Made by a program: the position numbers and the translations under genes. Under the pieces are notes generated by a model. The model searched no databases and was not told the DNA's origin. It worked only from the letters and a program-made list of their open reading frames with translations. 64,000 nt of DNA. It comes from an uncultured archaeon. Lineage in GTDB: Archaea > Asgardarchaeota > Lokiarchaeia > Sigyniarchaeales > SOKP01. The stretch's first letter is position 1; each line of letters begins with the position of its first letter. Of this stretch, positions 2,965-7,174 are shown one piece after another. The stretch covers positions 488,242 through 552,241 of the forward strand of contig CAZALK010000001.1 in the NCBI GenBank assembly GCA_964486045.1. The letters run 5' to 3'.

Positions 2965-3175
2965 ACCTAAAATCCACTCATTATTATTTAATCTGTGAAA
3001 ACATTTCTGTAAAAAAGAGTATTTTAACTAATTATTCATTCCTAAAAAATTTTACTAAATTCTGTTTAATCTTTTCATTTAAAAGCAAAAATTTTTAGTC
3101 CTTGTTTCTGTATATTTAATTAGCAAATTTTAATTATAGTTTTATAAATAAAATCAATTTTTGGAGATTATTAGT

Positions 3176-3754
3176 ATGGGACGTCGTAAAAGAAAACAAG
3201 CTTCACCAAGAAGGGTGAAACGGGTGCCGAAAATTTTCACCTGCCCAGAATGTGGGGAGAAGAGTGTTAAAGTCACTGACATTAAGAAAAAAGGAGCTTT
3301 TGCTACAGTAAAATGCGGAAATTGTGGATTGACGAAGGAAGTGTTAGTAAATTCAATATCAGAACCCGTCGATGCATTTGGGGATTTTATAGATATATTT
3401 TATGCTGATCAAGAACTTCAAAGATTAGAAAAACGTATTATAAAATTCAAAGAAGATAATGCATTGGGAGAAATTATATTATCTTATTCAATCTTATCAG
3501 ATCTTTGTAAAGTTAAAGCCGCTATATTATTAGACGAAGAACCAATAGATATAGATGCAGTAAATAGCTGGAAAATGAAAGCTGAAGAATATAAACGACT
3601 GGAAAAGGGTGCATTATTAAAACTTGATTCTGAAGAACTAGAACGAGGAGTTCGAACAGATGAAGAATCCTTGTTTACAGAGAGTGAGACCAGAATAAAA
3701 AAAGGACGAAAAATTGAAGATACCTTTGACGATCCTGGGTTTTTAGAATTTTAA
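3176..3754 (+). CDS. elf1: Transcription elongation factor Elf1 with long C-terminal extension
   Basis: MGRRKRK...FTCPECG...VKCGNCG...EPVDAFGDFID Elf1 signature. ATG at 3176 is preferred over the TTG at 3161. Confidence 0.9.
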   Translation: MGRRKRKQASPRRVKRVPKIFTCPECGEKSVKVTDIKKKGAFATVKCGNCGLTKEVLVNSISEPVDAFGDFIDIFYADQELQRLEKRIIKFKEDNALGEIILSYSILSDLCKVKAAILLDEEPIDIDAVNSWKMKAEEYKRLEKGALLKLDSEELERGVRTDEESLFTESETRIKKGRKIEDTFDDPGFLEF

Positions 3755-4148: not shown

Positions 4149-4607
4149 TTAGCTTCCTTTGCGCTTAGCAAACAGGCTTTTTAATTCTCCCATGATAGCG
4201 CCTCTGAGTGAAACTGGATTTGCAGGGCGAGCAGGTGCGGGTGCAGGTCCTGGACCAGGTTTTGTACCTCCCGGGGGAGCACCCGGCGGAGGTGGTGCGG
4301 TTCTTGTTGGCCCTCCAGGCGGACCAGGTGGCGATCCGGGCGATCCTCCTGGTGCATCTGAGACAGCAGGACCAGCTGCTGCTGGTCTTGATTTAAGTGT
4401 AGTAATGTCTCTATTTACCGCAGTTAATTGGTTTTGCAAATTTGTGACCTTCGAATTGATATCTTGAATACTCACGTCTACCAAATCAGGTATTTTGAGT
4501 ATAATTTGCATTATTTTTTCAACAATATCTCCAAAAGCGCTTAATTTTTCTTCCATTGGGGCCTTTCTTGTACTCTCTAAAAAAGAGGAAAATTCTTCTG
4601 CACACAT
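4149..4607 (-). CDS. Coiled-coil + polyproline + C-terminal amphipathic basic helix protein (VASP/WH2-like candidate actin regulator)
   Basis: Heptad N-terminus; PPGPPGGP and APPPPGAPPGG tracts; terminal LRGAIMGELKSLFAKRK. Confidence 0.7.
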   Translation of the reverse strand: MCAEEFSSFLESTRKAPMEEKLSAFGDIVEKIMQIILKIPDLVDVSIQDINSKVTNLQNQLTAVNRDITTLKSRPAAAGPAVSDAPGGSPGSPPGPPGGPTRTAPPPPGAPPGGTKPGPGPAPAPARPANPVSLRGAIMGELKSLFAKRKGS

Positions 4608-5446: not shown

Positions 5447-7174
5447 TTATAAATAATTATCCATCTTTTTCTGATCATTTTTAGTATTGTAAAATTTATT
5501 ATAGTCTATGTCTGGAATATTTGGTAATATCTGATTTGACAAGCTTTCGTATTGATTAATTATATACTCTTGCATTTTACTAGGAGGTATATAATATGGT
5601 ACTTGAATTAATGTGACATTATTTTGTTTACATAGATCTAATTTCATTAAATCATCTTCTTTTCTTTGTATGAGATCCTTTAAAGTCTGGTTAAAGTGTG
5701 TTACGGCACGATAATGTTGTTCTCCTTGTGCTTCAAAAGCCAGCTTTAAGTCTTTATTATAACCATCTAATTCCATTTGATTACCCCGAGAATTTATTAG
5801 CCAATTTGGTCGTTCCTTTGGAAATTCTTTTTGAAAAATTTCTTCGAAGAACTTCCTTGACAAGCTCTCAAATTTTCCTTGAGAACATTGAGGACACCAA
5901 TCACCTCTTATAAAGTTTGTTGGAGCGCTTTCAAATATATGGTTTTCACTACAGCGTATTTTTAACTTTTCATGTTGATTTTTGTAATCTTCTGGCATAG
6001 AAAGACATTTTCCACCTCTTTTTTCAATAAGTGTTTGAATATCCTGAAAAGACCCTCTTAGTTTTTCACCAATAACTTCGTAACTACATTTCCTACACCA
6101 TTTTCCTTGTTTTAAATTTTGAGCATTAATATTAAACTTATGACCTGCTTCGCATTCAATTTTGAATCTTGTTCTTTGATTGAAAAGTTTTTCTTTCGGA
6201 TCTTCATAGATAATTCCATTTAATTTACCACCTTTTTGAGTTATAATATTTTGATGTTCTGCTACCGAACCCCTCTGGTCATCTACTCGACTTTTTACAG
6301 CACATTTTGGACACCAAGTTTGGTTATGTATAACGGAATCTACACGAGTTTTCCATGAGTGTTTACATTTTCCACATTGGTATAATAATTTCGATTTGAT
6401 ACCTTTAAATTCTTCTGGAATTGATAAAATTTTTCCAGTCACTCCGGTTTTATCAATACCAACTTGCTTCACAATTTTTTTTAAATCTGTCAAAGTATAT
6501 TTTTTCATGAGATCTTTATATTCCTCTGCACCAATCAACTTTTTTATTCTAGATCTCATCGTTGTAATTCCAGGGACCTTTTGACCATTTTCTCGTAATT
6601 GATTTAGGACTATATTATAATTTCTATATTTCTTATAAAATTTTATCCAGTTTCTAACATCTTTTTCTGAATATTTCTTATTACCCAAATTAAGACTTTT
6701 AGTTTGAGATGGAATTATTTTTATTGTAGATCTTTGAGGTTCATTTTTTGTTTTCGTAATGGGTGAATATTTAATTCTGTTAATTCTGTTTTTAGATTTT
6801 TGGTTTGGATCGAATGTTGGTCATATAATTCTGTTTTTAGATCCATTTTTCGGATCGAGGGGAGATTTCGTGAGGGAGTTGCTGAGTTCTTTATTTGGCT
6901 GAGATGTGAGGTTAGTAATGGTATTTTTTGCATCTTTATTCATATCTGGTGGAGGTGGTTTAATGCTATTTTTAGTTTCTTGGTATGGTTTCGGTTTTTG
7001 ATTTTTAGTCTGCTGAATTTTCCCTGGTTGTGGTTTAGGGTTTTGATTAGGCGTTTGTTTCGGTTTCTGGTTAGCTGATTTTGAATTTTTTTCAGGGGTG
7101 GGTTTTGGGGGTTCGGGGTTAGCTTTTGGGCTCTGGCTAGGTTGAGATTTCGGACCTTTCGATTTGAAGCTCAT
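5447..7174 (-). pseudogene. Low-complexity leader + Zn-finger repeats + PD-(D/E)XK/Vsr-like endonuclease, with one in-frame TGA at 6821-6823 (a 413-aa C-terminal part could be expressed from TTG at 6688)
   Basis: ORFs 6821-7174 and 5447-6688 are in the same frame with no other stop between them. The TGA aligns to CGA (Arg) in paralogue 19497-22379. Three C..H...WCxxC fingers and a MELDGYN..LAFEAQGEQHY nuclease motif. Confidence 0.8.

Follow-up and report, generated by a model that had tools for sequence, protein, structure and literature searches.

Here we describe a gene of an uncultured lokiarchaeon whose product, P0001, belongs to an undescribed family of Asgard archaea, the closest relatives of eukaryotes, in which a coiled coil is joined by a low-complexity linker to a C-terminal amphipathic helix. 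The gene lies in the window, by which we mean the whole stretch of 64,000 nucleotides that was analysed. Over the Asgard classes sampled no part of the family is as well conserved as the terminal helix, whereas the linker is not conserved, a pattern to be expected if the helix docks on a strongly conserved partner; the actins of these Asgard genomes share 72-100% identity. Judging from the sequences, we favour a trimeric adaptor whose helices would dock in a groove of Lokiactin or of an actin-related protein (Arp) and cluster filament ends at membranes, a proposal to which we give slightly less than an even chance, while an actin role of whatever kind for the family appears somewhat more probable than its absence. 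In a literature search that left most subscription journals outside its coverage we found no paper on the family, and none naming those of its accessions that we tried or linking Asgards with WASH, WAVE, CCDC53 or stand-alone WH2 proteins.

Reading of the minus strand from 4607 to 4149 gives an open frame of 152 codons, and the plus strand is interrupted by stops. The frame has 205 homologs of similar length (E ≤ 0.01), all of them labelled "hypothetical protein" and all from Lokiarchaeia-type genomes, and its GC content is 47% against 17-25% in the flanks, on account of which we consider P0001 a real gene. A first-pass annotation made from the letters, which gave no strand, had described a coiled coil, Gly/Pro tracts and a terminal motif, and every motif that it quoted was found in this frame: PPGPPGGP at residues 93-100, APPPPGAPPGG at residues 104-114 and RGAIMGELKSLFAKRK at residues 135-150. 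Database searches with P0001 added little, as Pfam returned generic coil matches only, structure searches with the monomer in Foldseek and ESM Atlas gave nothing informative, and the ESM Atlas feature search found only unnamed Asgard clusters.

Table 1. Coordinates of the features discussed (positions in the window unless a locus or contig is named)
Feature	Position	Strand	Remarks
P0001 gene, 152 aa	4149..4607	-	Single copy in genome; undescribed pan-Asgard coil-linker-helix family
Short N-terminal helix, residues 2-14, AEEF motif	4566..4604	-	Conserved in the stand-alone protein
Long helix of residues 18-73; probably a parallel trimeric coiled coil	4389..4556	-	Homologous to f7 coil; weakly resembles CCDC53/Brk1
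Disordered Pro/Gly/Ala linker, residues 74-126	4230..4388	-	Both length and sequence vary
Terminal motif and amphipathic basic helix, residues 127-150	4158..4229	-	Near-invariant; presumed docking element
BAR-fold gene, 207 aa	4738..5361	-	130 bp upstream, co-oriented; possible membrane partner
f7 long ortholog	L308:1501-2436	+	Further loci L310-L337
f7 long ortholog	L309:1501-2457	-	
GTPase with coil and helix tail, this genome	G000 C13:124732-125979		E 5e-8

The three-part anatomy was upheld by an AlphaFold2 model built on 105 diverse sequences, in which the helices 2-14, 18-73 and 134-151 are predicted at high confidence and the linker is disordered, the global confidence of the monomer model being low (pTM 0.42). 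The core of the terminal helix reads R-x-x-I/L-M-x-E-L-K-x-L-F-x-K-R. The first-pass annotation had itself named an unconserved terminal helix as what would tell against its reading, and residues 127-149 turned out to be near-invariant in 120 close homologs, with 100% identity at L134, R135, G136, A137, I138, E141, L142, K143 and F146 and 99% at R149, and to be held across Asgard classes. In the same homologs much of residues 3-44 is also near-invariant and the linker is variable. Between classes the coil diverges (mean column identity 21%), and E-L-K-x-L-F is retained. The longest proline run in P0001 is four residues, and many close homologs have longer ones; runs of at least four prolines occur in 112 of the 120 close homologs versus 25 of 91 diverse representatives, GPPPPP is present in one of the 91, and the long orthologs described below, which we call f7, have runs of just 1-2. 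Polyproline is therefore outside the common plan of the family and is conserved only in Lokiarchaeia.

That plan (coil, low-complexity linker and terminal helix with the core E-L-K-x-L-F-x-K/R) recurs everywhere the family occurs. A profile made from Loki members only matched in 165 of 301 Asgard genomes and a profile of the terminal helix alone in 192 of 251, a few of these being weak or fused copies. The family is usually single-copy, and of the Asgard classes searched almost all, Hodarchaeales and Heimdallarchaeia among them, contain it, with members such as WEU40005.1 of Odinarchaeum yellowstonii, PWI49591.1 and MHA2365055.1 (Hodarchaeales), MHA1721475.1 (Baldrarchaeia), MHA1615783.1 (Njordarchaeales) and WP_287584566.1 (Borrarchaeum). 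A search over 1.84 billion representatives yielded family members and generic coils, no eukaryotic homolog being recognised among the best 150. Viral contigs held no relative of P0001, and a shorter family variant that we examined was surrounded by cellular genes.

Several variations on this architecture were observed. The stand-alone gene is tandemly duplicated in two genomes of one class (L034/L104 and L035), where the copies could form heterotrimers. In one Loki member (L033:5999-6475, minus strand) the helix is followed by eleven consecutive aspartates, which make up an acidic tail resembling an A region, and longer low-complexity proteins (L097:1063-2361, L112:1099-2115, L278, L279) carry several family-like helix copies. 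In the family f16, genes of 110-120 aa with coil and prolines and without the terminal helix (L050:5964-6329, L284:1492-1824, L292:1423-1753) directly follow a Rab-like GTPase and in L050 precede TFE and ESCRT-I/II genes. Proteins with a coil, a Pro-rich stretch or both and a C-terminal zinc ribbon (L267:830-1309, plus strand; G000 C15:11053-12051), the ribbon resembling the tail of the Loki two-domain gelsolin, are perhaps a second family of cytoskeletal adaptors.

The N-terminal coil of P0001 likely forms a trimer, since its profile matches in PDB sequence searches are dominated by trimeric coils and several of its core positions are rich in Ile/Val. Among the trimeric coils known, those of CCDC53 and Brk1 deserve attention, as both form homotrimers and contribute one strand each to the WASH and WAVE complexes, respectively (10.64898/2026.09.18.752629). 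Pfam CCDC53 (PF10152) is the top match of one f7 ortholog at 25.5 bits, against a cut-off of 24.6, and this gathering score is passed neither by P0001 nor by the others; the score of that ortholog falls to 13.8 bits when its coil is taken alone, and only two of 21 f7 coils match. Five of the 16 CCDC53 matches in 61 Asgard genomes, the best included, belong to this family, and HSBP1 recurs with similarly weak matches. When structure alone was searched, Brk1/HSPC300 had the top identities (24% and 18%, the others reaching at most 13%) among 50 rows of long helices, and a WAVE chain appeared only among the generic helix rows; no Brk1, Abi, WAVE or WASH was among the PDB sequence matches listed for the coil profiles. 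Homology of the coil to CCDC53/Brk1 is possible, and the similarity is inseparable from that of generic trimeric coils.

A broader profile recovered genes that earlier profiles had missed, namely long orthologs of about 270-320 aa in 27 of the 31 genomes of the Heimdallarchaeia family f7. One of these genomes is a closed record of 3,081,793 bp, in which UJG40964.1 is the neighbouring gene and which we take to be that of Ca. Heimdallarchaeum aukensis. The f7 coil is homologous to the family coil by HHalign (95.4%, E 1.8e-8), and f7 coils score 13-26 bits with the family profile against at most 4 for reversed and shuffled controls, so that we consider the long proteins probable orthologs of P0001; the family helix profile gives only 1-10 bits on the f7 helices. 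After the Pro/Ala/Gly linker these proteins have short helices, two or three of them, with L-x-K-(V/A) at the end of each (22 of 22); the last of these motifs reads LKKV (5/22), LTKV (15/22) or LTKI (2/22), a pattern with zero matches in the 1.36 million residues of the open reading frames of the present genome. The repeats are followed by a charged spacer, a family-type helix of consensus ALNxEVKDALAKRK (22 of 22), an acidic stretch that contains Phe in 19 of the 22, and at the end a second family-type helix with an acidic terminus. In Baldrarchaeia orthologs a different helix with LKP(T/A/V) stands immediately before the terminal helix, weakly in register with the f7 repeat (E 0.0026, probability 11%). 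The f7 and Baldrarchaeia repeats were not detected by the Pfam WH2 and thymosin profiles, and PDB profile searches with them returned no WH2 protein. The sequence L-basic-basic-T/V, including LKKV, is a published WH2 signature (PMC9433394), and WH2, connector and acidic region is the order that defines the WCA domains of the WASP family (PMC10330494). The f7 orthologs are plausibly WCA-like in layout, the basis being the order of the parts and the signature without a significant profile match.

Coil and helix are also found outside the stand-alone protein. They are a portable module, which Arf/Rag-like GTPases of about 410-490 aa and a HEAT-repeat protein carry as their tail. An LRR protein of this genome and a Rab-like GTPase have the helix only, and each of the two elements is found without the other. 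In the present genome the helix profile detects only P0001, the LRR protein and the GTPase. The module is absent from the five gelsolin-domain proteins of this genome, and no gelsolin with it was found among the best 150 representatives. The GTPases (L107, L109, L113-L115, L276, L277 and that of this genome) comprise at least two Arf/Rag-like subfamilies and have an N-terminal domain of no known type.

Next to the P0001 gene lies a second gene of interest, for which a model of three long helices (pLDDT 91.9) was obtained. The top Foldseek rows of this model are nearly all BAR domains (TM 0.63 to arfaptin-2; best E 0.009), and by this predicted three-helix fold we assign it as a BAR domain. The gene has no Pfam annotation, is single-copy, and is conserved across the taxonomic family and in a sister family; it adjoins the P0001 gene in 76 of 76 family-level loci, where most of the block is equally syntenic, and in one genome of the sister family it is still adjacent with the order reversed. 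No BAR-fold gene was seen near the coil-linker-helix gene in other classes, and none outside the order. Neighbourhoods of the coil-linker-helix gene differ between classes and most are without an ESCRT gene; a link to an ESCRT operon was considered and dropped, being sporadic only, with the L050 match beside ESCRT-I/II genes lacking the helix. Elsewhere in the window, a gene at 3161-3754 (plus strand) encodes an Elf1 transcription-elongation zinc ribbon that is extended at its C-terminus by 115 residues, and at 5447-7174 (minus strand) the radical SAM and BAR genes are separated by an insertion, probably mobile and present in just 11 of 80 related loci, that consists of a Zn-finger repeat nuclease-like gene and a frame rich in Pro, Lys and Asn. 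The genome encodes Lokiactin and four other full-length actin-family proteins, and the P0001 gene is not near the actin gene. In the text of a published Lokiactin co-immunoprecipitation study, one ARF GTPase is enriched, two BAR proteins are detected and no P0001-type protein is named (PMC13716822).

Placing these results into the adaptor model that we favour, three copies of P0001 would trimerise through the N-terminal coil, each of them with a flexible Pro-rich arm that bears a single amphipathic basic helix, of the class of the WH2 helix, the WASP C-region and the VASP FAB. The docking site of this helix would be the hydrophobic groove of Lokiactin or that of an Asgard actin-related protein, and the trimer, by gathering several actin subunits or filament ends, would promote nucleation, tethering or bundling. 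Arf-like GTPases that bear the coil may co-assemble with P0001 through it, and the BAR neighbour may place P0001 on curved membrane. Such an adaptor would need no profilin-polyproline delivery. Several indirect lines suggest a link to actin, namely the WCA-like layout of the f7 orthologs, the BAR-fold neighbour, the fusions to Arf-like GTPases and a weak match to the WH2 of Cordon-bleu. The short form, with one helix per chain, could tether, bundle or weakly nucleate, and the f7 form with its repeats would be the better nucleator.

A more far-reaching version of this model, which we consider rather unlikely, is that the family is the Asgard forerunner of WAVE/WASH. The homotrimer would in that case have given rise to the three coil strands of the eukaryotic complexes and their WCA, such that the strands of WAVE or WASH, Abi or FAM21, and Brk1 or CCDC53 would descend from one protein, and the f7 protein, controlled by Arf-like GTPases and BAR proteins, would serve Lokiactin or an Asgard Arp as a nucleation-promoting factor.

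The helix could instead dock on a partner other than actin, for instance the MIT domain of Vps4 in the manner of MIM1, the BAR protein, a roadblock/longin domain or a small GTPase, the family being then an adaptor of trafficking or ESCRT function. The spacing L-x-x-E-L-x-x-L of the helix resembles that of the MIM1 helix; like a portable tag, the helix is also present in proteins of Rab-like, LRR and HEAT type; ESCRT genes lie within about 6 kb of two distant loci (L036 and L047); and genes of small-GTPase type lie near many loci of the family. We nevertheless find such a partner unlikely, as the neighbourhoods vary between classes and mostly lack ESCRT genes, the proteins of this genome that carry the helix are as few as three, and a non-actin partner would leave the helix and LKKV repeats and the acidic segment of f7 unexplained.

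Alternatively the helix could bind its own coil, either folding back in autoinhibition or cross-linking trimers into a scaffold, in which case the role would be structural with no conserved external partner. That coil and helix move together into GTPases and the HEAT protein, and that within Lokiarchaeia conservation of the coil in its first half equals that of the helix, would agree with this; however, the two also occur separately, and between classes the coil diverges while E-L-K-x-L-F stays, making this alternative improbable. The monomer model, at its pTM of 0.42, neither demonstrates nor rules out a contact between helix and coil.

The first-pass annotation had proposed a VASP-like processive elongator in which polyproline recruits profilin-actin, the helix holds F-actin and the coil oligomerises, and this is the least probable of the explanations considered here. 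In its favour are the proline runs of the close homologs and the end of Thor-type orthologs, GG(L/M)MGELKxLLAARRKK, which we take to be close to the FAB segment of VASP/Mena. Against it, P0001 has no EVH1 and no G-actin-binding WH2 motif between its prolines and its helix, its coil is N-terminal and trimer-like, and polyproline is scarce among the diverse and f7 members and not conserved outside Lokiarchaeia. Some Heimdall and Thor profilins bind the polyproline of VASP weakly, which would suit an elongator of this kind, whereas those of Loki and Odin are reported not to bind polyproline (PMC8410842); as polyproline is richest precisely in the Loki members, delivery through profilin becomes less likely. 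The Pfam profilin profile gave no match in this genome or in the controls and is therefore uninformative on this point.

New in this analysis are the f7 long form, the weak but recurrent CCDC53/Brk1 coil matches, the BAR-fold neighbour and the Arf-like GTPase tails. If the family is ancestral to WAVE/WASH, it fills the gap of the missing Asgard nucleation factor, and if the WCA-like form of f7 is functional, the origin of WAVE/WASH-type nucleation moves before eukaryogenesis. If it does not bind actin, it is still an unannotated and near-universal Asgard protein with a portable docking helix that small GTPases use. Being short, soluble, usually single-copy and near-universal, the family offers a concrete candidate for a factor that starts, tethers or elongates Asgard actin filaments, accessible as a 25-residue peptide or a protein of 150-300 residues.

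Comparison with known actin regulators places P0001 outside the established families. Like Ena/VASP proteins, it has an oligomerising coil, a proline-rich stretch and an amphipathic helix with a basic end, the last presumably resembling the VASP FAB. P0001 is not, however, a member of the Ena/VASP family: no EVH1 (WH1) was matched by Pfam and the model consists of three helices only, the P0001 coil is N-terminal and best matched by trimers, unlike the C-terminal tetramerising coil of Ena/VASP, and no VASP chain was among the PDB matches of the helix profiles. The stretch from residue 74 to residue 126 is purely Pro/Gly/Ala, with no WH2-like motif or WH2 match, the helix ends in LFAKRK without an LKKT-type motif, the WH2 profile PF02205 misses the family in 61 genomes and the thymosin profile fails to detect its terminal helix. 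In the PDB the first helix profile matched a single natural protein, the WH2 of Cordon-bleu (4JHD_C), and this match is not significant (E 4.2, and 6.7 in a further search). P0001 likewise has no WCA domain, possessing one helix, no WH2 signature and no acidic tail, and none of the nine weak hits of WASH_WAHD (PF11945) in Asgard genomes is to the family. The family falls outside the WH2 and WASP families by membership and plausibly works like Ena/VASP, WH2 and WASP proteins.

Both the layout and the weak profile matches point to WAVE, WASH, CCDC53 and Brk1 rather than to VASP. WAVE/SCAR and WASH share with P0001 an N-terminal coil strand, a Pro-rich arm and a C-terminal helix of actin-binding type, and with f7 plausibly also the order of WH2-like repeats, connector-like helix and acidic segment, although f7 has repeats of less than canonical WH2 length and a Phe in its acidic segment. 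CCDC53 (WASHC3), Brk1 and HSBP1 are, like members of this family, small proteins built on a coil of roughly 55-65 residues, theirs being homotrimeric; Brk1 differs in being a coil and nothing else, and the C-terminal domain of CCDC53 has no match in the P0001 family. To our knowledge, neither an Arp2/3 complex nor Sra1 or Nap1 has been established in Asgards. In the Asgard 2DGel gelsolins the WH2 signature L-basic-basic-T/V lies between gelsolin domains (PMC9433394), and P0001 lacks this signature whereas some of the long orthologs have it. An archaeal parallel is arcadin-2 of Pyrobaculum, which binds the groove of crenactin through a C-terminal helix that is conserved although its linker is not (PMC5173319). 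Arcadin-2 is unlike P0001 in being a depolymeriser encoded in the crenactin cluster, and it provides the precedent that an archaeal terminal helix borne on a variable linker can bind the groove of an actin homolog.
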